Assembly (NCBI GenBank): GCA_965372795.1
Contig: CBDVDR010000013.1
Coordinates: 37,145 to 101,144 of the forward strand
DNA length: 64,000 nt
Source of the DNA: an uncultured bacterium
GTDB taxonomy: Bacteria; Zixibacteria; MSB-5A5; GN15; FEB-12
Direction: 5' to 3'
Position numbers and translations under genes: made by a program. A model generated the notes under the pieces. The model did not search any database. It was not told the DNA's origin and saw nothing but the letters and a program-made list of their open reading frames with translations. Positions 6,301-58,986 of the stretch are shown here, piece by piece; within the stretch, counting starts at the first letter, position 1; each line of letters opens with the position of its first letter.

Positions 6301-9022
6301 AATGAATTGTTTTGACACCGCTTCTATGGTCAATAATCTTTTCTATTCTGCCTAACTGGTCATGGAAATAGGTCGTTGTCACATCCACCGAAACTGTAGG
6401 ATCGGCTTCAAAGGATTTAATAGTATCACTTATTTTTCTTCCTCTTTCATCATAAGCATAACTCTTAAATGCTAATTGTCGAATTATTCCCAAATCATCT
6501 TCGCCAATTGCTTTCTCTGATCCCAACAGATCACCCTTCATCCAGTTGTATTTGATTTGAGTATCATTAGAAAGAGTCATCTTGACTATTCGAGAAAAAC
6601 CTTCATATGCATATTTAGTAGTTTGTCCGGTTGAGTTAGTATCCTGGATTAATTTACCTGATCTGTCATATACTCTTTTTGATGTAAGTTTAGTGCCATC
6701 AAGACTAATCACTTCCTCGCTAATCAGTAAACCGCGCTCATCATAGACTCTCTTAATTCGGCTTCCATCCGGGTTTGTTGTTACCAGAGGAAATCCTCTA
6801 AAATCTGAACATATTTCTAATTCTTTTGCTTCATCTGTATTACTGCTTAATATATACTTTGTTGGAAATCCCAAAACATTTCTTTCAAATTTATCAATGA
6901 TGTGACTACCGGCTAACGTGCCGTCGGTATAAGTTCCTTTAGGACGCTCATAACTGCTTACCTTATTATCTGAGTTATAATGAAGATGATATTCAGCCAC
7001 GTTGCCGTTTATTGCCGGAAGTGTTATTTTCTCAAGCAAACCAAGAGCATTAGTTGTATTTATGGTTAAATTACCATTACCGTCAGTGCTTTTAATTCCA
7101 AATCCAAATACATCATACTTTGTGCCAAATTCAATTGCCATTCCAGTAACATCATTTACTTGTTTGGATACTCTACCAGCATTATTGCCGGTACTACCAT
7201 AAGCAATTTCATGCCTGATTCCATCAGGTTGTATTCTTGCTGTTAATTGTCCTTTACTATTGTATTCGAATTTACTTATGCCGCTTTGTATTGTTCCATC
7301 AGGAAGCGTAACGTCCGGATGATGCAACTCCAATAGTTTGCCTGTATTAGTAGAAGATCCGGGATTGATATTAAAATCATATTTGTATTCTGTTAACGAA
7401 CTTAATTCATTTTTTTCTTCTGTTATTAATTGATAAGTTGCTTCATATTTTGCTCTCCAAACAATACGACTCGGCGATGGAAAACCTATTGCCGAAGTAA
7501 GTTCTCTTTGAAGCATATTTCTTCTCATGCGTGGATCAGTATTCCCAAAATCATAAGTAATAATTTCCCGGCTCCCATCAGGTTTGGTTATAACTGAAAG
7601 ATTACCTTGTTCATCAAAATCATACTGCCAGATTACTATTCGAAATGATTTGTCTTTATTCAACCTGAATCTGCGATCTATTAAATCTCCTCTATAATTG
7701 AATGTATAAGTTTCAAGTCCAAAGCCCGGATTCATCACTTCTACACTTACTGCAGGTATATTTATATAAATAGGATCTGCCGGTACCGATTGAAGTTGAG
7801 TATAACGAAATTGAAATAAACAATTACCATACATCTGTTTAGTTAAACGAGCATAATGCCATGAGGCGGGATCTTGCTCATACTTATTTTCTAAATATAC
7901 ATTGCCTTCAGAATCTTCTATCCTGAGAATATTATGTCTTAATTCCGGATATTTAAAAGGTTGCTCATAATGATAAACTCTTGTAATTCCTTCCGGATGG
8001 TCTGTAGTCGTCGGACTGTGAACACATTTTAAATGCTGAGTTTGATCATCATGACTATATCTGTATTTCCTTCCGGAATGATCTTCTATGGAAACTATAC
8101 TACTACATTCATTATATTCAAAACGTATGTATCGTTTGTTATCATCAGTAACTGCCAATAATTTATCATCGGAACCATAGGAATAACTTAATTTATTTCC
8201 ATATCTATCTTGAGCCCAAATTATCGGAACTCTCTCTCCATCAATCCAACCAGCAGGACGTTCAAAACGCATTGTTGTACCACCGGGACCCTTTATTTCA
8301 AAAGTCTGAGATAAACCTGTTACTCGTTCAAGTTTCTCAAATTTTCCCCTTGGGGGTTCAAAATTAGCTCCGTCGAATTTAAAAATATCCTCATGCAAAT
8401 TTCGCCATAATGCTATATCTCCTGTTTTCAATTCTCTAACAAAAAGATTGTGATTGTGATCCCAGTTCCATCCAAATGGTCCGTAAGATGAAGCACCACT
8501 TCTGTAAAATCTGGTTAGTCCCAATGGTAATATTGTATTCGGAATTTCAAGGTCGGTTTCATTTAAATACAATGCTCCATTAAAAATATCCACCGGATCA
8601 GCAGCATCGGTCTGATCCTGGGGTTCTTCATCACTATGTGTAGGATGTGGTTCTCCATCTGGAGGACGTTGATCTTCCTCCTCACTACTCGGCGGTGGTG
8701 TTGGTGGAGTTGTCGGTGAATCGAGATCGCTACCGACATCGTTTCCGCCGACTCCCTGAGCGACACCAGAATCTCCCTCATCGCCGGGTGCTGCCTCGTT
8801 TGCATTATTTAATATTTGATCTCTATCTAATGGTGCTGACAATGTTTCTGATGGACATAATGATTGAATTAAAGCCCAACTTTCACGCGAACCGGTTCTG
8901 GTTGCTGTGGGATCTAAAGCTAATTCCGCATTACTAAAACGAATATGTTCACAAGCATCATCGGTTTCAATTGCACGTCCGCCTCCGCCTACTTGACTCA
9001 TTGGTTGATCGAGTTTTCCCAT
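3380..9022 (-). CDS. Rhs/YD-repeat polymorphic toxin with C-terminal permuted papain-like (His...Cys) domain
   Basis: DPVDIFNG..LTRFYRS Rhs N-terminal motif, many YD repeats, core end YVYVAQNPIDLIDPEG, C-terminal GHAAAVV...NCSHFAADVLGQAG. Confidence 0.9.
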   Translation of the reverse strand: MGKLDQPMSQVGGGGRAIETDDACEHIRFSNAELALDPTATRTGSRESWALIQSLCPSETLSAPLDRDQILNNANEAAPGDEGDSGVAQGVGGNDVGSDLDSPTTPPTPPPSSEEEDQRPPDGEPHPTHSDEEPQDQTDAADPVDIFNGALYLNETDLEIPNTILPLGLTRFYRSGASSYGPFGWNWDHNHNLFVRELKTGDIALWRNLHEDIFKFDGANFEPPRGKFEKLERVTGLSQTFEIKGPGGTTMRFERPAGWIDGERVPIIWAQDRYGNKLSYSYGSDDKLLAVTDDNKRYIRFEYNECSSIVSIEDHSGRKYRYSHDDQTQHLKCVHSPTTTDHPEGITRVYHYEQPFKYPELRHNILRIEDSEGNVYLENKYEQDPASWHYARLTKQMYGNCLFQFRYTQLQSVPADPIYINIPAVSVEVMNPGFGLETYTFNYRGDLIDRRFRLNKDKSFRIVIWQYDFDEQGNLSVITKPDGSREIITYDFGNTDPRMRRNMLQRELTSAIGFPSPSRIVWRAKYEATYQLITEEKNELSSLTEYKYDFNINPGSSTNTGKLLELHHPDVTLPDGTIQSGISKFEYNSKGQLTARIQPDGIRHEIAYGSTGNNAGRVSKQVNDVTGMAIEFGTKYDVFGFGIKSTDGNGNLTINTTNALGLLEKITLPAINGNVAEYHLHYNSDNKVSSYERPKGTYTDGTLAGSHIIDKFERNVLGFPTKYILSSNTDEAKELEICSDFRGFPLVTTNPDGSRIKRVYDERGLLISEEVISLDGTKLTSKRVYDRSGKLIQDTNSTGQTTKYAYEGFSRIVKMTLSNDTQIKYNWMKGDLLGSEKAIGEDDLGIIRQLAFKSYAYDERGRKISDTIKSFEADPTVSVDVTTTYFHDQLGRIEKIIDHRSGVKTIHYDGIGRVTKVIDPLGNEEHFDYDNNGNVFQVENHHIEPDGTTSIITKSFTYDERDRIVEMIEPDGAKLVLEYDDRNLQVSRSDYLGIILQTKYDSFNNKVEETHDVGGLNITHKWILDNMSRLTSYIDPTGQVSSYQMDGVGRITKTDYPNGFSSTKTFDDKGQVIEETLSSGVKFEFTYDSSNRLINIKNTGAPSSVTGVQPHEFAYDGLDRLVLAKIGTNKVDRKYDSLSRLLLEKTHGDDVTCHYNDNAGTIEKILPDGRTEEYSHDLNGVLLEIKETVGGTLGNGTSPIASFKPSGSNYFGEASYQGGTNIINQYDERKRLVETMINSPAGLNKNLKYRYDTANRKQVEAIVGQNPKLSFYDFDKKYRLTEAKNGFASVISNAITQAEHDAAITAIKTASAGASHEEGFEYNHSDARVKYTESGVPDKNYSYSPGYRIQTDGTNIYTHHTDGSLQNDSVLTYEIDALGRIIEIKSGINIVCKIEYDALGRPSIVKEQGKPILSLNYLGGIVEQEKENGIASKQITSHPITGVPISHHILSDTYNTLFDNRFNLIGLSDSGGNLIESYRYKSFGEPEIYDGAGVKILTSSFGLEPVFGGQRYLSSVGLYLSKRRLMNPVNGIYLSTDPKGYADSPSLYVYVAQNPIDLIDPEGELAFLAGLAIAALVGALVSGGLNATRQHIAIAEGSQEEWEWGQFGISTGIGVVAGPLLVVAPELAVPLAIYGVRNGVAGIAEGNYATGTFDIVTSLAPFGFKGVRGATFGRGSRIGQMRGLGPSYSWNARLGRFTLIGNAAGNFVPSIFGRRIGIGFSRSVRPGQTAEGHAAAVVENPDSTFTFFEKNAMRLQDRSLVAAYKMEQGLPEFYGPDPRFGPRPFEYSVQRISSRNASRASEYANTRMRQNGVEPFDFDCANCSHFAADVLGQAGFRNFGNGRGSGVYNNFVNFGIARSMSYLGSILANGIHPNETVESK

Positions 9023-9030
9023 TTAGTACC

Positions 9031-9921
9031 TCACTTTGAAACTGCAACAACAATTGCCCTTTCTCCATCCCAAACCACGTCCCCTTCATTGACATTAATG
9101 GTTGGAATATGAGATATACATTTTGAAGCACTTGTTATAAATAAATCTATATTATTTTTTATTTTGTTCTGTTCATCTTCTGAAAATCTTCTCCCATATA
9201 TTGAAAAGATTTGTGCTGGGTTATTTTCTTTTGTAAGAAATCTCTCAACTAGAAGATATTCGTTCATTCCATTTTGATTATTGCTCACCTCATGAATTTC
9301 ATAAGAATTTTCTATAAATTCATTTCTTGTAACTACAACTTTATAAGGTTTATCACAGTTGTTAAGAAGTATCTTTCGAATATCATAAACCTCGGCCATA
9401 TTCACATTGGGACATTGATTACTTATCGATTGCATTATTTCAGAGGTTTCTTTTAATTCGATACCTGCTTCATAGTCCCTGGCTACATTAATTATGAACT
9501 GAATTTCTTTTGAACTTGAATCAACAAATGAAACATTCCAAACACTCGAGGTATGTCCCTCTTTAATGTTCCATATCTCACAATCAGCTATTTCTTCCGT
9601 TAATAACTTATCGAAATAATTCACCATGTAGAGTTTGACACAAATAGCAGATTGACCAAATGTTAAAGTTTTGCATTCTGCCGCATATTTACAAAGCAGT
9701 AATAAATCTTCAGAATTTAAATCACTATTTAAATTCTCACGTTCCAATGACACAGCATTATTATACCAAACCTCATTGGATACATTACTATCTATTAATT
9801 TATTAAGCAGCCCTCTACTGATAATTCCATGAAATGGCATGGTTGAATTTTCCTCAACCATGCCGTTTTCTGACAACATAAATGACGTTTTATCAGGACC
9901 GAAGAAAAAATTGAAATCCAT
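9031..9921 (-). CDS. Hypothetical protein, possible kinase-like fold
   Basis: EGHTSSVW (Gly-loop-like), VTRNEFI (hinge-like) and NEGDVV in kinase-like order, but canonical Lys/HxD/DFG are not evident. Confidence 0.35.
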   Translation of the reverse strand: MDFNFFFGPDKTSFMLSENGMVEENSTMPFHGIISRGLLNKLIDSNVSNEVWYNNAVSLERENLNSDLNSEDLLLLCKYAAECKTLTFGQSAICVKLYMVNYFDKLLTEEIADCEIWNIKEGHTSSVWNVSFVDSSSKEIQFIINVARDYEAGIELKETSEIMQSISNQCPNVNMAEVYDIRKILLNNCDKPYKVVVTRNEFIENSYEIHEVSNNQNGMNEYLLVERFLTKENNPAQIFSIYGRRFSEDEQNKIKNNIDLFITSASKCISHIPTINVNEGDVVWDGERAIVVAVSK

Positions 9922-9944
9922 TGTTATTCCAATAGTATCTATGG

Positions 9945-42080: not shown

Positions 42081-43844
42081 ATGTTAAGTAAGAGAAAATT
42101 ACTAAAAGGGACGGCGATATCCCCGGGAATTATAATCGGGCATACCCGTATAATTGCTCCCGGTGTTATGGAAATACCGGAACTTGTCATACCATCTTCT
42201 CACATAAATAACGAAATCAATTCCCTTGATAAAGCGATTGCCAGTACCGTTGAAGAATTAACCGTATTACGGGATTCCGCCGGTAAAAAAATGGGCGGAG
42301 CAGTTGCCAAAATATTTGATGCTCAATTGATGATTGCCGGTGATATTGAGTTTTTAAAACAGGTTAAAGGTGAAATTGTAAATAAGAAACGTAACGCCGG
42401 ATATATTTTTCAAACTCTCGTCCAAAACACGACTCTGCCATTAAAAAATTCAACTGATACCTATATGCAGCAAATGGCAAAAGATATTGAGGCTGTTTCA
42501 TCAAAAGTATTAACTCATTTAAGCGGTACTGAGCGTTCCGGTCACCGATTTGCCCCCAACACAATTTTAGTCAGTAAATTTTTCTCACCGGGAGAGATTT
42601 TAAATTATCGCCAGAGAAAAGCTATCGGTTTCATCGTCTCAGAAGGCGGGAAAAATTCACACATGGCTCTTATTGCCCGGGCGATGATGCTTCCGACGGT
42701 CATGGTTGAAAATATCTGGACAAAAATAAATAACGATTGTGATATTATTGTCGATGGTTCCGAAGGTCTAATTATTGTTAATCCTTCTGATGAAGACCTG
42801 ATTGAATATCAAAAAAGAAAAAAGAAACAGGGACCGACGACAATCAAGCGTATAAAAAAACTTACCCCCTTCCCCCCTGTTACCAAAGATAAACAACCGG
42901 TGAGTATTGCCTCAAATCTTTCGTTCCCCGGTCCGGCTGATGATATCCTTGCCGATCAGAATATTCCGGTAGGATTATACCGAACAGAATTTTTATATCT
43001 GGCGAATGAATATTTCCCTGATGAAGAAACTCAGTTTGAACATTACAATAATATTGCTCAAAAATTTTCCGATACGAGTGTCATCTTTAGAACTTTTGAC
43101 CTTGGCTATGATAAACTAATTTCACAAAGTTATTGGCCCGAAGAAGACAATCCGGCTCTGGGCTGGCGTGGAATCCGTCCAATGCTTGAAATGACCAATA
43201 TTTTTAAAACTCAAATTAGAGCCATCTTAAGAGCTTCTACTTTAAGAAATGTCAAAATCATGCTGCCGATGATATGTGATTTGACCGAGTTTCTTAAAGC
43301 TAAAAAAATGATCTCTCAGGTAAAGTTTGCCCTGCGGAAAGAAAAAATAGATTTTGATCATGATATCGAAATCGGCATTATGGTTGAGATTCCATCAGCA
43401 GCTATTTCTGCTGATCTTATTGCCCAAAAAGTAGATTTTATCTCTATTGGTACCAATGACCTGACCCAATATACGCTGGCAGCTGACAGGTTGAATAGTA
43501 AAGTTGCCAATTTATACAATCCTTTACATCCAACGGTCCTCAAACTTATTAAAATGACGGTTGAGGCTTGTAAAAAGCATGGAAAACCGGTAGCAGTATG
43601 CGGCGAAATCGCCGGCGACCCCATTGCTTTACCGCTGTTTATCGGTATGGGAATAGATCAATTATCAATGAGCCCGAATAAAATATTTGATATTTGCAGA
43701 TTAGTTAAAAAAATTGATTCGCAACTGGCAAAACATTTCGTAAACTCTGTGATGGCAAGCTCAACTATAAAAGAAGTCATGGAGAAATTAAATACTTATA
43801 ATCTCACTTTTGATAAACAAAAAACCTTAACTGTAGGAAATTAA
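42081..43844 (+). CDS. ptsI: PTS enzyme I
   Basis: SHMALIAR, GLYRTEF, NPALGWRGIR, SIGTNDLTQY, CGE. Confidence 0.93.
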   Translation: MLSKRKLLKGTAISPGIIIGHTRIIAPGVMEIPELVIPSSHINNEINSLDKAIASTVEELTVLRDSAGKKMGGAVAKIFDAQLMIAGDIEFLKQVKGEIVNKKRNAGYIFQTLVQNTTLPLKNSTDTYMQQMAKDIEAVSSKVLTHLSGTERSGHRFAPNTILVSKFFSPGEILNYRQRKAIGFIVSEGGKNSHMALIARAMMLPTVMVENIWTKINNDCDIIVDGSEGLIIVNPSDEDLIEYQKRKKKQGPTTIKRIKKLTPFPPVTKDKQPVSIASNLSFPGPADDILADQNIPVGLYRTEFLYLANEYFPDEETQFEHYNNIAQKFSDTSVIFRTFDLGYDKLISQSYWPEEDNPALGWRGIRPMLEMTNIFKTQIRAILRASTLRNVKIMLPMICDLTEFLKAKKMISQVKFALRKEKIDFDHDIEIGIMVEIPSAAISADLIAQKVDFISIGTNDLTQYTLAADRLNSKVANLYNPLHPTVLKLIKMTVEACKKHGKPVAVCGEIAGDPIALPLFIGMGIDQLSMSPNKIFDICRLVKKIDSQLAKHFVNSVMASSTIKEVMEKLNTYNLTFDKQKTLTVGN

Positions 43845-43848
43845 TAAA

Positions 43849-44928
43849 TTGACATTGCTTAATGATGTAGAAAAAATCAGAGAACTCGATCCAGGTAATA
43901 TGTATAACAGCATTTTTGATTTACCGGAGCATATGGAAAATGCACTAAAAATATGTAAGAAATGGAAAATCAATCCGGATGATTTTTCTGATATTAAAAA
44001 TGTGGTTGTTGTAGGAATGGGTGGGTCAGCTATAGGTGGCGATCTGGTGCGATCATATCTTAATGCTAAGATCATGGTTCCGTTTCATGTTTGCCGACAC
44101 TATAATCTGCCAGAATTTGTCGATGATGAAACCCTCGTTATCGTCTCATCGTACAGTGGCAACACCGAAGAAACACTTTCTGCAGTTGACGATGCCCTGA
44201 CACGCAAGGCGATGATTGCTGCTGTCTCAACCGGTGGGATGTTAAACGAAGTTGCTGAACTTAACCAAATCCCAATTGCTATATTGCCTGAAGGAATGCA
44301 GCCTCGTGCAGCCCTGGGATATTCTTTCACACCGCTGTTATATTTGCTGGAAAAAGTCGGGCTGGTAAAAGATGTTGTAAGTGAACTAAAAACTACAACG
44401 GCAAAATTGAAACTATTCCGCGAAAACTATATCGAAGATATTTCAGTTGATAAAAACATGCCCAAAAAACTTGCTGAAAGAATTCAAGGCAAAATCCCGA
44501 TTATCTATTCCGGACCGACAATAACTGACGTTGTTGGATTTCGATGGAAATGCCAAATATGCGAAAACAGCAAGATCCTTGCATTTAATAACCAGTTTGC
44601 CGAGTTTAACCATAACGAATTGGTGGGATGGTCAGAAAAGATTGAAGAAAAAGGCGAACATCTGGTCGTGTTGATGCTTCGGGACTTTGATGATATGGAT
44701 CAGATCAAAGCACGAATGGATATTGTAAAAGAAATTATTGAAGCTCTTAATGTGGAAGTAATTGAAATTTATTCCCGCGGTGACTCGGTCCTGGAAAGAA
44801 TGTTTAGCTTAATCCAGATCGGTGATTTTGCTTCGTATTATCTCGCTATCCTAACTAATACAGATCCTTCTCCCGTTAATATTATTGATTATTTAAAAGA
44901 CTCGATTAGTGATTTAAAAAAGAAATAA
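43849..44928 (+). CDS. Bifunctional phosphoglucose/phosphomannose isomerase
   Basis: GMGGSAIGGD, SYSGNTEET, QPRAALG, ENSK, EFNHNE. Confidence 0.9.
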   Translation: MTLLNDVEKIRELDPGNMYNSIFDLPEHMENALKICKKWKINPDDFSDIKNVVVVGMGGSAIGGDLVRSYLNAKIMVPFHVCRHYNLPEFVDDETLVIVSSYSGNTEETLSAVDDALTRKAMIAAVSTGGMLNEVAELNQIPIAILPEGMQPRAALGYSFTPLLYLLEKVGLVKDVVSELKTTTAKLKLFRENYIEDISVDKNMPKKLAERIQGKIPIIYSGPTITDVVGFRWKCQICENSKILAFNNQFAEFNHNELVGWSEKIEEKGEHLVVLMLRDFDDMDQIKARMDIVKEIIEALNVEVIEIYSRGDSVLERMFSLIQIGDFASYYLAILTNTDPSPVNIIDYLKDSISDLKKK

Positions 44929-45140: not shown

Positions 45141-45521
45141 ATGAAGTATTTTGTATCACTGTTGATACTGGTATTATTCCTTACTGTCCCTTGGAATACT
45201 GCTGTATCCAAAATGCATCCAGACACCTATAAAGATTTACTTCGCCCGGATGGCGACGATCATCCTTGGGGTGGTGAAGAAGTAACAAACCCGGATGATT
45301 TCCTTAAATCAATTGATGAACCGGCTATTCCGATCTATACCGGTTATCTTATCCTCGACTTTGCTTTTAATAAACTTTTCAGACCTGTAATTTTACAGAT
45401 CAGAAACGATGTGATAAATACTCCCAGCCAGGAGAAACAAATCACAGTTAACACCTATTCACCAAATAGAGATTATCAACCTGTAAGCACAAGTGGAACA
45501 TATGAGGGTAAAGGTAATTAA
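45141..45521 (+). CDS. Small secreted protein, candidate signal propeptide
   Basis: GGGAG RBS, Sec-type signal peptide, low-complexity mature part with GDDHPWGGE. Stop is 2 nt before the activator ATG. Confidence 0.7.
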   Translation: MKYFVSLLILVLFLTVPWNTAVSKMHPDTYKDLLRPDGDDHPWGGEEVTNPDDFLKSIDEPAIPIYTGYLILDFAFNKLFRPVILQIRNDVINTPSQEKQITVNTYSPNRDYQPVSTSGTYEGKGN

Positions 45522-45523
45522 AC

Positions 45524-47773
45524 ATGAAATTAGCTAAAAGCACTGAATCAGAATTCTGTGAAGCTATGGCTCATTATATTGAGTCGTTGATAGCCAAACG
45601 GGATTTTTCAGGTGTTATTAGATATTATCAGGATAATTGTAATGATATCGATAACGCCGGAAATATCACGGCAGGATCGATTCTTCGCAACATTGCTATT
45701 GCTCACGCTTCCTTACATGATTACCAGATTGCACTAAAAAATATCAGACTTGCTCAAAATCTCATTGTCCGTGATGGTGACAGCATTGTTCTTGCTGAAA
45801 CTTTCATGACTCTTGGAGGAATTCTAAGAGACAGCAATGAGCTTAAGGAAGCGGAAAAAGCATTTCGCGATGCGGAATCGATTTTCCGTCGCAATGACAG
45901 CTTAGACGGCCAAAGTAGAGCATTGAACCTTCTTGCCGGTTTATTTTACCGACAAAATGATTTCAGAAATGCTCTGTCTGTACTTATGGACGCGGTTGAA
46001 ATTGCAGAAAAAACAAACGACCATAAAAAGCTTGCCTTCATGATGGGCAACCTTGGAAGAATTTATTCTTTCACTGGAAATTTCAAAGATGCAAAAAAGA
46101 ATTTGCTCATCAATATCGATCTTTCCAAAGAACTGGGCGATCAATTAGAAACTGCTCGCGCCAGAATGTCCTATGGATATATTTGTATCCAGGAAGGCTC
46201 TTACAAAGAAGCCGATGAAATTCTAAACAAAGCCTTGAAAGCGACCATCTCTTTAAAATCCGGAAGAGATGAAGTTATGTGTCTGACATACATGGGTGAA
46301 TCATATTACCAGCAAAAGTTATATGAACAATCCCATATAACTTTAAACAAGGCTCTTTATCTGTCAGAAGCCATTTCACCTGACTCGACCATGACTGCCA
46401 GAATACGCAGACATCTGGCCGAATTAAATATCAGACAAAAGAATTTCCGAATAGCTCAGAGATTAACCAACAAGGCTATGCCAGTCATGAAAAAACACCA
46501 TGTCTTAGTGGAGATTGGTGCGCTATGGAAAATTCTTGCCCAGATCGCTGATGAAAATGGCGATCATGATAAAACGAACAGTTATTTCAGCAAAGCTTTT
46601 GAAATGCTGGACAAATCATCCGTCCGCTTTGAAAAGGTGGATGCATTAAAAGCTGCCGGATGTTGCCAAACATTTAACACTAAAAAACGGCTGACTTATC
46701 TTTTCCGGGCTGAAGAATTTTATTCGGGCAACAACCTCGTATCTAAACAGAATGAAGTTGCAAAACTTATTCAGGATACTGATCAGGAAGTTTCTATTTA
46801 TCGGAGTAAGTCTCCGAACAAAAATATTCTTCCCAAAAAGATTGATTATATCTCAAATAATAAAGAGATCAAAAGGTTCAAATCTCAATTGCCCTTGATT
46901 GGCAAAAGTGACATTCCAATCCTGATAACGGGAGAAACCGGAGTCGGAAAAGACCATATGGCAAAATATTTCCATTCTCTGGTTCGCAGTGATCGCCCCT
47001 TTAAGGCTATCAACTGTACTTCTATCCCGGAATCACTAATGGAATCCGAACTTTTCGGCTTTAAGAAAGGCGCTTTTACCGGCGCAGTAGCTGACAAGGA
47101 AGGACATTTTGTCTCTGCCGACGGTGGAATTTTATTTCTGGATGAAATTGGTGATATGCCGCTTTTATTACAGGCAAAACTTCTCCGTGTCCTTGAAGAC
47201 AGAAAGGTACTTCCCTTAGGATCTACAAAGGAAATAGAGATTGATGTCGTACTCGTTACGGCTACTAACCAAAATCTTCTTCAAATGGTTGAGGAAGGTA
47301 AATTTAGAAGAGATTTATATTTCCGTATAAGTGCGATCACTTTTGAGATTCCTCCCCTAAGAAAACGCACGGAGGATATTCCTCTTTTATTAAATTATTT
47401 CATGAAGCATAGCAAGCTCTTCAAAGAAGGGGAACCTCTCCCCTCAGAACTTGTGCACCAGTTCATTCAATATGAATGGCCCGGTAATATTCGTGAAATG
47501 GCAAACAAGATCAAACGTCTTGAAATTATGTCTGAACTCGTTGCCGAAGGTGACCTGGTCGAACTTTCAAGAACGATCTTTGTATCTGAAGAAATTGAAC
47601 AACCAATCGGTTTGTTTGAACGGGTCGAAACGTTCGAACGAAAATTGATTGTTGAAGCTCTATTGGCGGCTCGTGGAAATAAATCGGAAGCTGCCCGTAT
47701 TTTAGGTATTCATGAGGCAACTGTTCGTACGAAACTTAAACGGTACGGCATAAACCTTGATCGAATTCATTAA
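45524..47773 (+). CDS. TPR-domain sigma54-dependent enhancer-binding protein
   Basis: N-terminal TPR array. GETGVGKD, ESELFG..KGAFTGA, LFLDEIG, RRDLYFR, WPGNIRE, Fis-type HTH. No receiver domain. Confidence 0.93.
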   Translation: MKLAKSTESEFCEAMAHYIESLIAKRDFSGVIRYYQDNCNDIDNAGNITAGSILRNIAIAHASLHDYQIALKNIRLAQNLIVRDGDSIVLAETFMTLGGILRDSNELKEAEKAFRDAESIFRRNDSLDGQSRALNLLAGLFYRQNDFRNALSVLMDAVEIAEKTNDHKKLAFMMGNLGRIYSFTGNFKDAKKNLLINIDLSKELGDQLETARARMSYGYICIQEGSYKEADEILNKALKATISLKSGRDEVMCLTYMGESYYQQKLYEQSHITLNKALYLSEAISPDSTMTARIRRHLAELNIRQKNFRIAQRLTNKAMPVMKKHHVLVEIGALWKILAQIADENGDHDKTNSYFSKAFEMLDKSSVRFEKVDALKAAGCCQTFNTKKRLTYLFRAEEFYSGNNLVSKQNEVAKLIQDTDQEVSIYRSKSPNKNILPKKIDYISNNKEIKRFKSQLPLIGKSDIPILITGETGVGKDHMAKYFHSLVRSDRPFKAINCTSIPESLMESELFGFKKGAFTGAVADKEGHFVSADGGILFLDEIGDMPLLLQAKLLRVLEDRKVLPLGSTKEIEIDVVLVTATNQNLLQMVEEGKFRRDLYFRISAITFEIPPLRKRTEDIPLLLNYFMKHSKLFKEGEPLPSELVHQFIQYEWPGNIREMANKIKRLEIMSELVAEGDLVELSRTIFVSEEIEQPIGLFERVETFERKLIVEALLAARGNKSEAARILGIHEATVRTKLKRYGINLDRIH
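47746..47761 (+). promoter_or_regulatory. Sigma54 -24/-12 promoter inside the activator gene 3' end
   Basis: CGGCAT-AAACC-TTGAT, correct spacing, close to the copy at 48119. The -12 box is the GA variant. Confidence 0.5.
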
Positions 47774-47885
47774 AATACAATTAAGATGTCGGGACCGGGT
47801 ATAGCCAGTCCGGTCTCGATGTGTATACTTATACACTCCTTGGTTAGCGGTATGTGTCTCACCAGTGCATACCGCTTTTTTATTT
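47772..47885 (+). ncRNA. Candidate sRNA 1 (or structured 3' UTR)
   Basis: Long hairpin 47786-47822, ACACTCCTTGGT anti-SD-like segment, terminator AGCGGTATG/CATACCGCT plus T6. Confidence 0.5.
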
Positions 47886-48005
47886 ATAATAAAGTTATCA
47901 AATAAAATTTATATATCGTATCTATGGTATGACAAAGCAAAATATTGTGCATCATGCATATATTGAATAGTCACAATAGGTTACATAGTTATTAACAGTA
48001 CCAGC

Positions 48006-48021
48006 TCGTATTGACATACGA
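48006..48021. promoter_or_regulatory. Candidate upstream activator sequence
   Basis: TCGTA-ttgaca-TACGA palindrome about 130 bp upstream of the predicted start. IHF-like CATTAACCACTTA at 48077-48089. Confidence 0.4.
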
Positions 48022-48118
48022 ATTACAAATCTAAAATAGTTCAACCGATCAGACATCCAAACATTAACTTGTTTAACATTAACCACTTATTCGCATGATG
48101 CAATCGTATTTATGCCTG

Positions 48119-48134
48119 TGGCATAAAGTTTGCT
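48119..48134 (+). promoter_or_regulatory. Sigma54 -24/-12 promoter
   Basis: TGGCAT-AAAGT-TTGCT, near-consensus TGGCAC-N5-TTGCW. Confidence 0.8.
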
Positions 48135-48143
48135 GTATATCAC

Positions 48144-48240
48144 AGTGTCATTTTACTCTCTAAGCGCTGTTGTCGTGCTTGGTTATATCTTCTCTTTGGT
48201 GAAACCACCCACATTCGAGGGGAGTGTGGGTGGTCTTTTT
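48144..48240 (+). ncRNA. Candidate sigma54-dependent sRNA 2 (~95 nt)
   Basis: Between the sigma54 promoter and terminator ACCACCCACATTC/GAGTGTGGGTGGT-CTTTTT. No credible ORF. Internal hairpin CTAAGCGC/GTGCTTGG. Confidence 0.7.
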
Positions 48241-48637
48241 ATATTTATTCAATAATTTATATTTTTACCCGCACGGCAAGAATACCGTACGGGCGTATGC
48301 ATCCCCCAATATCTCACATCTTTGTGGCTCTCAGCTGAATCCTTTCAGCACATCAGCGGTTATTTATATAATCAGGTGAGGATATTTTTTCTTAATCGGA
48401 AAACATTTGGTATGGCAGTATATGGGATTTTTTTAATAGATTAAAATGAACTATTATCGTATCTATATAATAAATAACCTATAATCATGGATACGTCAAG
48501 CAATAAAACTATTATTATAGACAAACGTATATTATGCGTTATTGGCATTAATAAGTCCCAAAACTTTTGTTGCTTATAATCAGGTAAAATTATATCTCTA
48601 AGCATCAAAATATTTACATTCAATTAATGGAGTAGTT

Positions 48638-50077
48638 GTGGAGAGTAACACAATAGTCGCTGTTTCGTTTATTGCATATAGTTTAATAGTTATTCTTATT
48701 GGACTTTATACTACCCGTTTTAGAAAAAAAACCGGTGAAGATTTTGTTTTAGCCAACCGTGAACTTGGTCCCTGGGCAGCATCATTGTCTGCCTCGGCGA
48801 GTGCTGAATCCGGCTGGGTGATGCTTGGTCTGGTCGGGATGGCTTTCACATCCGGCTTGTCAGCCCTTTGGATCGCCCCCGGCATCGGACTCGGCTATCT
48901 TTTTAACTGGTTCGTTTTAGCCGAAAGATTACGCAAGGAATCATTGTCTTTAAATGCTGTAACGCTGCCTCAATTCATTTCTAAAAAATTTGATGTCAAC
49001 TCGAAAGCCCTCCGTATTATTCCGGTTATAATTATTTCTCTGGCGATGCTTGGATATGTTGCCGCCCAAATGAATGCCGCCGGCAAAGCCTTTGAAGCAA
49101 CATTTTCCATCCCATATATCTGGGGAGTTTTTGCCGGAGCAGCAATAATTTTAGCCTATACCGTCACCGGAGGCTTTAGAGCGATTTGCTGGACCGATAT
49201 TGTTCAGGCATCATTTATGTTGATTGCTTTAATAGGCATGCCTTTAATCGTAATGTTTGATCAGGGCGGTTACTCGGCAATTGTTACCAAACTAAGCTCA
49301 ACGAATCCGGAGTTACTAACTTTGAGCGGAACCAACACCGGGTTTGGATTTGTCGGATTTATAGTAGGGATGATGGGGATCGGTTTAGGGTACCCGGGTC
49401 AGCCGCATGTACTCGCGCGATTTATGGCATCAAAAGATAAAGACACCATTAGCAAGGGCGGCGTAATTGCTTTTGTATGGTTTTTCTTTGTTTACATCGG
49501 TGCCACCTTTTTCGGTCTGTTTGCCCGGGCATATTTTGGAACCCTTGCCGATCCGGAACAGGCTCTCCCGCTGGCTTGCAATGAATTTCTCCCGCCGGTT
49601 CTGGCTGGATTTGTAATCGCTGCAATTGTTTCAGCAATCTGTTCAACTGCTGATTCGCAATTGATCGTTGTATCGTCAACAGTTTCCCGCGATATAATTC
49701 CACTTTTTAAAAAAGATAAAATTCTTGAAAACAACTTTGCTAAAGTTCAACTGACTGATAGATGGGTACTGATTGTGCTTGCTTTACTTTCGGTTATTTT
49801 CGCGCTATCGGAAAACCGCGTCATTTTTGAATTTGTCCTTTATGCCTGGTCGGCGCTTGGTGCCTCGTTTGGACCTTTGATGATTTTAGCGTTACTGTGG
49901 AAGAAGACTACTAAAGAGGGTGCGATTGCCGGGATGTTAACCGGATCAATTGTGACTGTAGTCTGGAAAAATATAACTTTTTTGAAAGATATTGTATATG
50001 AACTTGTTCCGGCATTTATTCTGGCATTTATTGCGGTTTGGATTGTGAGTTTGTTAACATACAAAAAGGAAAATTAA
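48638..50077 (+). CDS. putP: Sodium/proline symporter (SSS family)
   Basis: SASASAESGW, GGFRAICWTD, GYPGQPHVLARFMA, STADSQL. Confidence 0.85.
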   Translation: MESNTIVAVSFIAYSLIVILIGLYTTRFRKKTGEDFVLANRELGPWAASLSASASAESGWVMLGLVGMAFTSGLSALWIAPGIGLGYLFNWFVLAERLRKESLSLNAVTLPQFISKKFDVNSKALRIIPVIIISLAMLGYVAAQMNAAGKAFEATFSIPYIWGVFAGAAIILAYTVTGGFRAICWTDIVQASFMLIALIGMPLIVMFDQGGYSAIVTKLSSTNPELLTLSGTNTGFGFVGFIVGMMGIGLGYPGQPHVLARFMASKDKDTISKGGVIAFVWFFFVYIGATFFGLFARAYFGTLADPEQALPLACNEFLPPVLAGFVIAAIVSAICSTADSQLIVVSSTVSRDIIPLFKKDKILENNFAKVQLTDRWVLIVLALLSVIFALSENRVIFEFVLYAWSALGASFGPLMILALLWKKTTKEGAIAGMLTGSIVTVVWKNITFLKDIVYELVPAFILAFIAVWIVSLLTYKKEN

Positions 50078-56724: not shown

Positions 56725-57450
56725 ATGTTAGAACTATCAGCAAAATCTCTAAAGAAATTTTACGGCAAAAGACCGGTTGTAAATGGTGTCTCACTTAATG
56801 TTAACCAGGGTGAGGTAGTCGGACTTCTCGGACCCAATGGAGCCGGCAAAACTACGACTTTTTATATGATAATTGGTTTTATAAGACCCGATGGAGGTAC
56901 TATTTCGTTGGGAGACACCAACATAGGCAACAAACCGATGTATAAGCGGGCAAACCTCGGAATTGGATATCTGGCTCAGGAAGCTTCAGTTTTCAGGAAA
57001 CTAACTGTCGAAGAAAATATTATGTCGATTCTTGAATTTCAGAAACTTAGCCGAAAAGAACGGAACCTGAGGCTTGAAGAACTACTTAACGAATTGGATA
57101 TCAGCAGTTTACGGAAGAATAAAGCTTATACCCTCTCTGGCGGTGAAAGAAGAAGAGTTGAGATTACAAGAGCTTTGGTAAATAATCCTAAATTTATTCT
57201 TCTGGATGAACCATTTGCAGGAATAGACCCTATTGCGGTTGAAGATATTCAAAATATCATCCAACGGTTAGTTTCTAAGGGATTAGGGGTCTTAATTACG
57301 GATCATAATGTCCGAGAAACTTTATCTATATGTAATCGTGCGTATATAATGTGTGATGGAAAAATCTTAAATTCAGGAACCGCTGAATTTCTTGCAAATG
57401 ACCCGGAAGCTCGAAAAGTATATTTAGGTGAGAAATTCAAGCTAAATTAA
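56725..57450 (+). CDS. lptB: LPS export ABC ATPase
   Basis: [42 protein letters not shown]. Confidence 0.96.
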
Positions 57451-57594: not shown

Positions 57595-58986
57595 ATGAAG
57601 TTAGGTTTAGGATTAAATTTAGGGTTAAGACAGTCTTTAGCACCCCAGCTAATTCAGTCTCTGAAAATGCTTCAAATGCCAATTTTGAAGCTTGAGCAGA
57701 CGATTAGACATGAACTTGCTATTAATCCAATGCTCGAAGAAGTGGAAGAACTTGAACCGGATGCAGAATCAACAGATGATACTGAAACTGAAGATTCTAC
57801 TGAAGATGCGATTGATTGGGAAGAGTACCTCTTTGATGATGAAGAAGGATATAAAGTTTATGAAGCTCGTGAATCGGCTGAAGAAATTTTCGAGGGTACT
57901 GCCTCAGCTCCAATAAATCTGTATTCTCATTTAACCGAACAGCTATCACTTCTAAAACTTTCTGAAATTGAACATCAAATCGGCGAATACATTATTGGGA
58001 ACATTGCCCCGGATGGCTACCTGACAATTAGTGTCAATGAAATGGCATCCGAACTCGATATTGATGCGGAAATTATCGAATTAGTGTTAAAACATATTCT
58101 CACCTTCGACCCCATTGGCGTAGGTGCCCGGGATCTGAGAGAATCACTGATGCTGCAACTTGAAGATAAAGGGATGAAAAACTCTCTTGCTTATCGTATT
58201 GTCGATGAACATATTCATGAATTGGACAGAAAATCAATTTTACAAATTGCAAAATTAATGAGTGTCCCGGCTGAAAAAGCTCAAGCAGCCATGAATATTG
58301 TTAAAAACCTCTCGCCTACTCCTGCTCAGGGAAGATTCGACGCCGCCGCTATGCCGGTTGTGCCGGATTTAATGATCGAACGAGTCGGAGATGAATTCAT
58401 TGTCTTCCATAATGACAACCATGCCCCTCGCCTTAGAATTAACAGCAACTACCGGGCTTTGGTAAAAAGAGGCAATACCTCATCAAACGATACCAAAAAA
58501 TATATTAAGCAAAAACTCGAACAGGCTCGCTGGCTTCTTAACTCAATCAACCAAAGACGCACAACTATGATTCGTGTCATGGAATCGATAATTATCAGAC
58601 AAGACGAATTTTTTGAGAATGGTCCGGAATTTATTAAACCGCTGATTATGGAAGAAATTGCACGGGATGTTGATATGAATGTAGCCACAATCAGTCGGGT
58701 ATCAAATAGTAAATATGTACAAACTCCTTTTGGGGTTTATGAAATTAAATTTTTCTTCAATTCCGGCATTTCCATGGAAGATGGCGAGGACATGTCAAAA
58801 CGTTCGGTTAAACAGCGAATTCAGGAAATTATCAACGCTGAACCGCTTGAAAAACCGCATTCTGACCAGGAAATTTTCAGGAGATTAAACGAAGAAGGCA
58901 TTAAGCTGGCGCGACGGACTGTGACAAAATACAGAGAAGAAATGAAAATTCGTCCGGCTCGCTTAAGAAAAAGAGTAACGGGATAG
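57595..58986 (+). CDS. rpoN: RNA polymerase sigma-54 factor
   Basis: Gln/Leu-rich region I, ATISR HTH, ARRTVTKYR RpoN box. Confidence 0.97.
   Translation: MKLGLGLNLGLRQSLAPQLIQSLKMLQMPILKLEQTIRHELAINPMLEEVEELEPDAESTDDTETEDSTEDAIDWEEYLFDDEEGYKVYEARESAEEIFEGTASAPINLYSHLTEQLSLLKLSEIEHQIGEYIIGNIAPDGYLTISVNEMASELDIDAEIIELVLKHILTFDPIGVGARDLRESLMLQLEDKGMKNSLAYRIVDEHIHELDRKSILQIAKLMSVPAEKAQAAMNIVKNLSPTPAQGRFDAAAMPVVPDLMIERVGDEFIVFHNDNHAPRLRINSNYRALVKRGNTSSNDTKKYIKQKLEQARWLLNSINQRRTTMIRVMESIIIRQDEFFENGPEFIKPLIMEEIARDVDMNVATISRVSNSKYVQTPFGVYEIKFFFNSGISMEDGEDMSKRSVKQRIQEIINAEPLEKPHSDQEIFRRLNEEGIKLARRTVTKYREEMKIRPARLRKRVTG

Follow-up and report, generated by a model that had tools for sequence, protein, structure and literature searches.

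A conserved small RNA gene of the Zixibacteria with a predicted sigma-54 activator of its own and a putative anti-sigma factor target

A stretch of 64,000 nucleotides from the genome of an uncultured member of the Zixibacteria (assembly GCA_965372795.1, contig CBDVDR010000013.1, positions 37,145 to 101,144), here called the window, harbours a predicted small RNA (sRNA) gene. It lies in the 860-nt spacer between the gene of a sigma-54 enhancer-binding protein and a sodium:solute symporter gene. It is considered probable that activator and sRNA form a dedicated module, in which the sRNA blocks translation of an anti-sigma factor and so frees an extracytoplasmic function (ECF) sigma factor. The element was pointed out in an earlier sequence-only reading of the window, which described a near-consensus sigma-54 promoter, an RNA of ~95 nt lacking an open reading frame (ORF), a strong terminator about 400 nt before the next gene, there named putP, and a single-stranded 5' part complementary to a Shine-Dalgarno (SD) sequence plus start codon. 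It took this layout to be that of a trans-acting sRNA. The analysis of relatives bears out each of these points: promoter and seed, whose absence from relatives had been named as grounds for refutation, are both conserved, and a concrete target with SD and AUG was found, the match in the window's own genome being only moderate. The features concerned are collected in Table 1. The genome to which the window belongs measures 3.35 Mb and is 98.65% complete.

The predicted RNA combines a single-stranded 5' end with seed 1, one stem-loop, a single-stranded linker with seed 2 and an intrinsic terminator. A 98-nt RNA folds at -34.7 kcal/mol (z = -4.48), and none of 200 shuffled sequences folds as well. 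A terminator scan of positions 47700-48700 returned four terminator-like sites where 0.5 were expected. The consensus fold of the aligned copies (RNAalifold) has two hairpins with together 21 pairs, 10 of which show compensatory change; in relative L014 the sequence of stem-loop 1 is wholly different while its pairing is kept. Direct reading of the RNA stretch gave no AUG and no conserved ORF. The second tract that had been noticed between hairpin and terminator corresponds to the C/U-rich part of the linker. The proposed Rfam/Infernal check was run as well: no Rfam family reached its gathering score in the window, nothing relevant was found at E<=10 in 47700-48700, and none matched in the loci of eight relatives, Qrr (RF00378) included. 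Paralogous copies of the RNA were not found in the own genome, where only short chance matches occurred. Pairing of seed 1 with the terminator loop in a pseudoknot was considered and rejected, as it showed no covariation.

Table 1 Features of the predicted activator-sRNA module, its surroundings and its putative target operon (positions in the window unless a contig is named)
Feature	Position	Strand	Remarks
Small exported protein gene	45141..45521	+	126 amino acids, signal-like N-terminal segment; from ORF list; ends 2 nt before activator gene
Sigma-54 enhancer-binding protein (activator) gene	45524..47773	+	N-terminal TPR, AAA+ Sigma54_activat, C-terminal Fis-type HTH
Conserved element after activator gene	47835..47882	+	ACTCCTTGGTT, strong hairpin (47846-47876), T run; terminator scan
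Palindrome, putative upstream activator sequence	48006..48021	.	TCGTA-N6-TACGA, 16 bp; centred ~130 nt before predicted start
Sigma-54 (-24/-12) promoter	48119..48134	+	TGGCAT-N5-TTGCT; GG at 48120-21, GC at 48132-33, fixed 10-nt spacing
Small RNA, ~95-97 nt	48144..48240	+	start and end predicted; covariance models, RNAalifold
Seed 1	48147..48161	+	GUCAUUUUACUCUCU, single-stranded 5' end, unpaired in consensus fold; family consensus GUCAUUUUUACUCC
Stem-loop 1	48160..48182	+	8 bp, CTAAGCGC/GTGCTTGG; pairs covary
Linker with seed 2	48183..48203	+	single-stranded, C/U-rich tract 48183-48199; seed 2 CUUCUCUUUGG, family consensus UUUUCUCUUUGG
Intrinsic terminator	48204..48240	+	13-bp G+C-rich hairpin (48204-48234), loop motif GAGGGG, U run; terminator scan, RNAalifold
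Sodium:solute symporter gene	48638-50077	+	PF00474; ~400 nt 3' of RNA terminator
rpoN (sigma-54) gene	57595..58986	+	Pfam Sigma54_AID, Sigma54_CBD, Sigma54_DBD
Putative target operon in own genome	contig C6: sigma 8793-9368, anti-sigma 9372-9941		bicistronic ECF sigma / zf-HC2 anti-sigma, then DUF6263 protein

The position of the promoter predicts a transcription start near 48144-48145. Because the pattern GGCAY-N5-TTGCW occurs at 29 sites in the genome, a promoter match alone is little proof. The covariance model R1, however, was built from the RNA alone and begins 2 nt before the predicted start; since the promoter lies outside the model, its presence upstream of model matches is an independent test. 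The motif GGCAY-N5-(T/A)TGCT was found at -22/-21 from the model start in all 32 aligned rows of the family (f1), which represent 31 distinct loci as L048 duplicates L024, and in all eight rows of family f3. The promoter of f4 lies 29-65 nt upstream of the model start, which points to a longer 5' end, and that of f2 about 75 nt upstream, which points to an RNA of ~190 nt with a different 5' domain. An inverted repeat, TTTATGCC-TGT-GGCATAAA at 48109-48127, overlaps the -24 element. The same-genus genome G001 carries ATGCC-GGT-GGCAT at this position and other genera have no such repeat; it is possibly a genus-specific operator.

When the whole spacer was compared by BLAST with 40 relatives, only ~48130-48244 was matched in other genera (G004, G011, G005, G009, G020 and two short contigs of G006); the contig of G001 ends 12 nt past the promoter. 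The alignment is invariant at GGCA...TTGCT, GUCAUU, UCUUUGG and GAGGGGA. Model R1 detected the RNA in 94 of the 108 family genomes, in 43 of 47 genera and in 68 of 73 high-quality genomes, nearly always as a single copy. The two near-identical copies of G006 (L013, L017) are located on short contigs of 1188 and 1643 nt and more likely reflect a duplicate in the assembly or a variant strain than a genuine second copy. In a sample of the order, R1 matched 87 of 98 genomes of f1, 5 of 5 of f2, 14 of 14 of f3 and 7 of 33 of f4; a broader model, R2, applied to a sample of the phylum, matched 51/54 (f1), 10/10 (f3), 3/3 (f2) and 9/15 (f4) genomes and had no match in 68 genomes that represent 15 further families of this phylum. 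All four families of the order thus have the RNA, in different forms. In the ~190-nt version of f2 (L127-L131) the 5' domain is a different one (AGCGUGG...), and a long tract of CU repeats is similar to the tail of 16S rRNA (CACCUCUUUU...); f4 copies (L140-L146) carry a 5' extension ahead of GGUCAUUU. The order-wide core consists of the C/U tract and the terminator.

The activator gene upstream of the RNA encodes a protein with clear Pfam matches (PF00158, 3.9e-60; TPR_12, 1.2e-32; HTH_8, 1.6e-12), a GAFTGA loop and the Walker A sequence GETGVGK; a receiver domain was not found in the Pfam domain search. Its association with the RNA is conserved. All six relatives' loci that have upstream flank carry an ortholog directly upstream on the same strand, and the N-terminal TPR half was matched in 21 of 21 further loci, with 40-53% identity in 20 loci of the family and 34% in one f3 locus. 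The closest full-length relatives in named records are labelled Candidatus Zixiibacteriota. A scan with R1 of 80 loci of activator relatives from all phyla placed the RNA beside both close orthologs and beside none of the 78 others. Genus g49 (four genomes) and genome G018 gave no match to the RNA model. In g49 no full-length activator match exceeds 32% identity, and the matches in G018 are confined to the C-terminal half. A divergent sRNA was not found beside the TPR-activator paralogs of g49 (best E = 0.14), nor was an sRNA-like element seen beside the activator matches examined in g49 and G018.

A palindrome upstream of the promoter is proposed as the binding site of this activator. Exact copies lie at -127 to -150 from the model start, around -136, in 28 of the 30 distinct family loci, and the remaining two are one base off. 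A second copy is often located ~90 nt further upstream, and in f3 the palindrome lies near -215. In the 3.35-Mb genome it occurs once, at the position given in Table 1. Allowing up to one mismatch there are 43 sites, of which this one only falls 60-300 nt upstream of any of 42 promoter-like sites. As the palindrome is unique and no other site lies near a promoter-like sequence, the sRNA gene is the activator's sole predicted direct target.

The RNA might be viewed as a leader or attenuator acting in cis on the downstream symporter/amidase genes, or as a chance combination of a promoter and a terminator. It does lie on the strand of the symporter gene, 400 nt upstream of it, and relative L010 also has a symporter downstream. 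A symporter relative was found, however, in only one of seven relatives' loci, against an upstream activator in the six with flank, which makes a symporter leader unlikely, and the terminator is strong and conserved. A chance promoter-terminator pair is excluded by the retention of the RNA across four families together with conserved promoter and palindrome. Taken as one alternative, leader or chance pair is regarded as extremely improbable, in agreement with the sequence-only reading, in which read-through into the symporter gene had been named as a possible refutation.

The target of seed 1 was sought in relatives. The complement of the family consensus reads as an SD sequence, a spacer, AUG and AC. 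This 14-mer complement was searched with at most one mismatch in 108 genomes, with the reversed pattern as control. The matches consisted of the antisense strand of the sRNA gene itself and, in many genomes, one second exact site (at least 23 such sites among the matches listed); the control mostly returned zero. Where the seed varies, a matching variant is met at the second site. Nineteen of 20 fetched second sites are the start of a protein of ~190 amino acids that begins with Met-Thr-Cys and directly follows an ECF sigma gene. The stop codon of the sigma gene lies inside the paired stretch, along with the SD and AUG of the following gene. The protein matches PF13490 (zf-HC2) at 2.5e-6, above the cut-off, has one hydrophobic segment and shows an H-x3-C-x2-C motif of which H29, C33 and C36 are invariant in 12 orthologs; the gene upstream of it matches Sigma70_r2, Sigma70_r4_2 and Sigma70_ECF. 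By these domain assignments the putative target is a zf-HC2 (ZAS-type) anti-sigma factor of an ECF sigma operon. An anti-sigma profile identified one ortholog in 102 of the 108 genomes.

Seed and target vary together. A set of 65 sRNA copies and 63 anti-sigma start regions (the best profile match per genome) was assembled, with 61 genomes contributing both; the set omits G072, and G058, G073, G122 and G094 have one part only. The mean energy of cognate duplexes in the 61 genomes was -22.7 kcal/mol versus -19.4 kcal/mol for non-cognate ones, a mean reached in none of 10000 permutations. Duplexes of -20 kcal/mol or better were predicted for 45 of the 61 genomes and of -15 kcal/mol or better for 55; full pairing extends over the AUG in 49 genomes, over the SD in 58 and over both in 47. 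Compensatory pairs were observed in separate genera (UUCUU/AAGAA, UGCUCC/GGAGCA, UUGUU/AACAA and UUCUCC/GGAGAA), and three of five f3 genomes pair at -23 kcal/mol or better, a private ACGUCC/GGACG pair among them. In genus g49, which is without the RNA, the paired letters of the site have drifted: three of its four genomes have ATGCTT for ATGAC and the fourth keeps ATGAC with an altered spacer.

Several observations weigh against the proposed module and its anti-sigma target. The start, the end and the expression of the RNA are themselves predictions; a search for sequencing runs over 47300-48900 listed none. The genomes are related, which inflates the permutation test and overstates independence; more weight falls on the separate compensatory events. 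Coding constrains the target stretch as well, as it encodes the sigma C-terminus and the Met-Thr-Cys start, and it resembles a generic strong ribosome-binding site. Not all genomes pair well: the other two f3 genomes reach only -12.2 and -17.4 kcal/mol, and four of the 61 genomes (G002, G017, G022 and G086) pair poorly, at -7 to -9 kcal/mol. Seed 1 is not the part of the RNA that is conserved throughout the order, since the f2 RNA has a different 5' domain; seed 2 and the terminator loop are, and these lie outside the explanation offered by seed 1. Hfq (PF17209) was not found in the 98.65%-complete genome, while control genomes responded to the same search. In some phyla Hfq is dispensable for trans-acting base-pairing sRNAs.

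The window's own genome is among the less convincing cases. Its junction reads GGAGUAAUGAAUGAC and its local seed GUCAUUUUACUCUC; the predicted duplex is weaker than in most relatives, with 13 bp, a 2-nt bulge and -13.6 kcal/mol, although SD and AUG are still covered. In a crude gene list the own anti-sigma start ranks 120th of 2739 start regions. The best seed-1 match of this genome is another gene, with an 18-bp duplex of -23.5 kcal/mol. This gene (contig C2, minus strand, start 10213) encodes a secreted protein of 189 amino acids and is located among genes of similar small secreted proteins. As it fits the locally altered seed (ACUCUCU), it may be a genus-specific target. With an own-genome match that is moderate, the case for the anti-sigma target rests mainly on the family.

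These points bear on an alternative in which the RNA is a broad anti-SD regulator, which imitates the tail of 16S rRNA through its two C/U tracts, ACUCC and UUCUCUUUGG, and damps a large number of strongly translated mRNAs, the anti-sigma mRNA being one of many or incidental. The order-wide conservation of seed 2 and the C/U tract agrees with it, as do the many own-genome start regions whose pairing equals or exceeds that of the anti-sigma site and a further ACUCCUUGG element at the 3' end of the activator gene. Seed 2 moreover is a perfect complement of codons 2-5 (CCA AAG AGA AAA G) of a 57-amino-acid protein (MPKRKE...; contig C22:21450-21617, + strand) that is found in 104 of the 108 family genomes and matches no Pfam family. 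The start of this gene is a candidate only for the seed-2 target, judged from complementarity. Its duplex with seed 2 has a mean of -22.9 kcal/mol in 37 genomes and shows no cognate advantage, 1765 of 10000 permutations doing as well; AGA is the Arg codon in almost every one of 51 genomes, and the motif persists in the g49 genomes that are without the sRNA. SD mimicry also leaves unexplained that the 14-nt match runs through the spacer and AUGAC, that in many genomes exact copies of the 14-mer are limited to the RNA's own antisense strand and one second site (at least 23 such sites among the matches listed), and that compensatory changes occur in the spacer. A broad anti-SD role is therefore judged quite unlikely, and translational control of the anti-sigma gene is retained as the preferred explanation.

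The terminator loop has been weighed in a similar way. The stem below it covaries, yet 64 of the 65 copies, and all four families, retain the loop motif GAGGGG (48216-48222). The loop could be a protein site or an SD mimic. A gene for CsrA is present, and the RNA might act through this loop as a protein-binding RNA, for instance as a CsrA decoy. Known CsrA decoys carry several GGA motifs; here the terminator loop GAGGGGAG is the only GGA-containing loop, in place of the several expected of an RNA that sequesters CsrA/RsmA. A decoy would not explain the conserved single-stranded seeds or their covariation with the target either, and this alternative is considered very improbable.

In the mechanism preferred here, a signal read by the TPR domain would activate the enhancer-binding protein, which would bind the palindrome and drive sigma-54 RNA polymerase at the -24/-12 promoter. 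The non-coding RNA of ~95 nt thus made would end at its own terminator, and its 5' end would pair with the junction of the ECF sigma and zf-HC2 anti-sigma genes, covering the anti-sigma SD, the sigma stop codon and the anti-sigma AUG. The duplex would most likely block initiation or re-initiation on the anti-sigma cistron and so lower the ratio of anti-sigma to sigma factor. Repression as the outcome is what we infer from the position of the duplex. The ECF sigma factor would then be freed, and in most relatives the operon may feed back positively on itself. Such feedback is plausible because 20 of 26 relatives' loci (L167-L196) have an ECF-type promoter, AAC-N15-18-CGTC, 51-56 nt before the start codon of the sigma gene; this pattern did not detect one upstream of the sigma gene of the own genome. 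A conserved GTCAA-N-TTTTTT element was observed upstream of the ECF-type promoter in the same loci.

The same RNA and pairing could have the opposite outcome, if the duplex triggered decay or silencing of the whole sigma/anti-sigma transcript and switched the ECF response off. The duplex indeed spans the sigma stop codon and the last sigma codons as well, and extended pairing into the 3' coding region of sigma is predicted in many genomes. A seed-2 site moreover recurs inside the coding sequence of sigma region 4 in ~10 of 29 loci; it was judged weak, because it is not universal and lies within conserved coding sequence. The invariant core of the duplex, however, is the SD and AUG of the anti-sigma gene and not of the sigma gene, whose own start region has no conserved complement. 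Shut-off of the operon is accordingly regarded as unlikely, and release of the sigma factor by repression of the anti-sigma gene is favoured. A more far-reaching version of the latter can be advanced tentatively, with doubt slightly prevailing: that the most conserved ECF sigma factor of the order is released by an RNA switch and not, or not only, by proteolysis or redox control of its anti-sigma factor, the single output of the TPR-type sigma-54 activator being an sRNA that breaks stop-start translational coupling, with positive feedback.

The module resembles Qrr/LuxO of Vibrio, in which a sigma-54 enhancer-binding protein activates small, terminator-ended, base-pairing sRNAs. The sRNA genes are the main direct output of LuxO, and one qrr gene adjoins luxO; similarly, the sRNA promoter described here is the sole predicted target of the neighbouring activator. 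Unlike Qrr, the RNA matches no Rfam family in sequence or structure, its gene is nearly always single-copy, the search for Hfq was negative and the putative target is an anti-sigma factor instead of a master transcription factor; unlike LuxO, the activator has a TPR input domain and not a receiver domain. A layout with a sigma-54-dependent sRNA gene beside the gene of its activator is also known for CrcZ/CbrB of Pseudomonas and GlmY/GlrR of enterobacteria. CrcZ and GlmY act by sequestering proteins (Hfq/Crc and RapZ, respectively), whereas the present RNA exposes conserved single-stranded seeds, for which a co-varying complement exists in an mRNA.

Closest in logic is FlmE (CJnc230) of Campylobacter jejuni, an RpoN-dependent sRNA that binds the ribosome-binding site of flgM, represses its translation and raises FliA-dependent transcription (PMC11187230). 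In both cases sigma-54 would act through an sRNA to bring an anti-sigma factor down and a second sigma factor up. FlmE is described in the same text as processed from the 3' end of the flgE mRNA, while the RNA studied here has its own promoter, palindrome and terminator. Its target also differs, being a membrane zf-HC2 anti-sigma factor of an ECF sigma factor, addressed at a stop-start junction within an operon and outside any flagellar context. Two further cases of sRNAs reported or predicted to act on anti-sigma synthesis may be compared: OmrA/OmrB of E. coli, reported or predicted to inhibit synthesis of FlgM (cited in PMC11187230), and PrrH of P. aeruginosa on vreR, the anti-sigma gene of ECF sigma VreI, which is itself only predicted from start-site complementarity and expression change (PMC8395346). 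These RNAs are unrelated to the sRNA of the window. Their promoters are not known to be sigma-54 promoters.

Further elements surround the module. After the activator gene a conserved element is present (Table 1), 7-mers of which recur in 16-22 of 30 relatives' upstream regions. In most loci its position relative to the sRNA model start is -186 to -201 (about -198), and it follows the activator stop codon by 55-200 nt; it was also matched in the same-genus genome G001. The distal and proximal palindromes flank this ACUCCUUGGUU-hairpin element. It may be the terminator of the activator gene with an anti-SD-like tail, or a second sRNA derived from the 3' end. The small exported protein encoded directly upstream of the activator matched none of the Pfam and NCBIfam families searched; in 11 of 21 relatives' loci a weak tblastn relative (E 1e-13 to 5e-4) occupies the same place before the activator gene. 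Its membership of the module is uncertain, and it may be a partner of the TPR sensor. About 8 kb downstream of the module, an ABC-ATPase gene (56725-57450) precedes rpoN, whose product is the sigma factor that the promoter of the RNA needs. Upstream of the module (42081-44928) lie genes for a phosphoenolpyruvate-utilising enzyme I-like protein and a bacterial PGI-like SIS protein, the latter of which is found upstream in 7 of 21 relatives' loci too.

No regulatory RNA for the Zixibacteria was found in the literature searched and Rfam holds no matching family, so that this is, as far as these searches reach, the first candidate sRNA for the phylum. It departs from the known systems in its stand-alone gene with a dedicated TPR activator, its putative ECF-type zf-HC2 target, the intra-operon junction at which it would act and an RNA of no known family; the only parallels shown by experiment in the literature consulted concern the flagellar anti-sigma factor FlgM (PMC11187230). 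The module is a variation on known sRNA logic and not a new principle, and it stands as a prediction. Its small parts make the circuit testable in E. coli. A complete circuit of sensor-activator, binding site, promoter, RNA, seed and co-varying target could in this way be proposed from sequence alone for organisms that cannot be grown. If true, it would connect sigma-54 with an ECF sigma factor in these bacteria, by control of anti-sigma translation at the junction inside a coupled operon.

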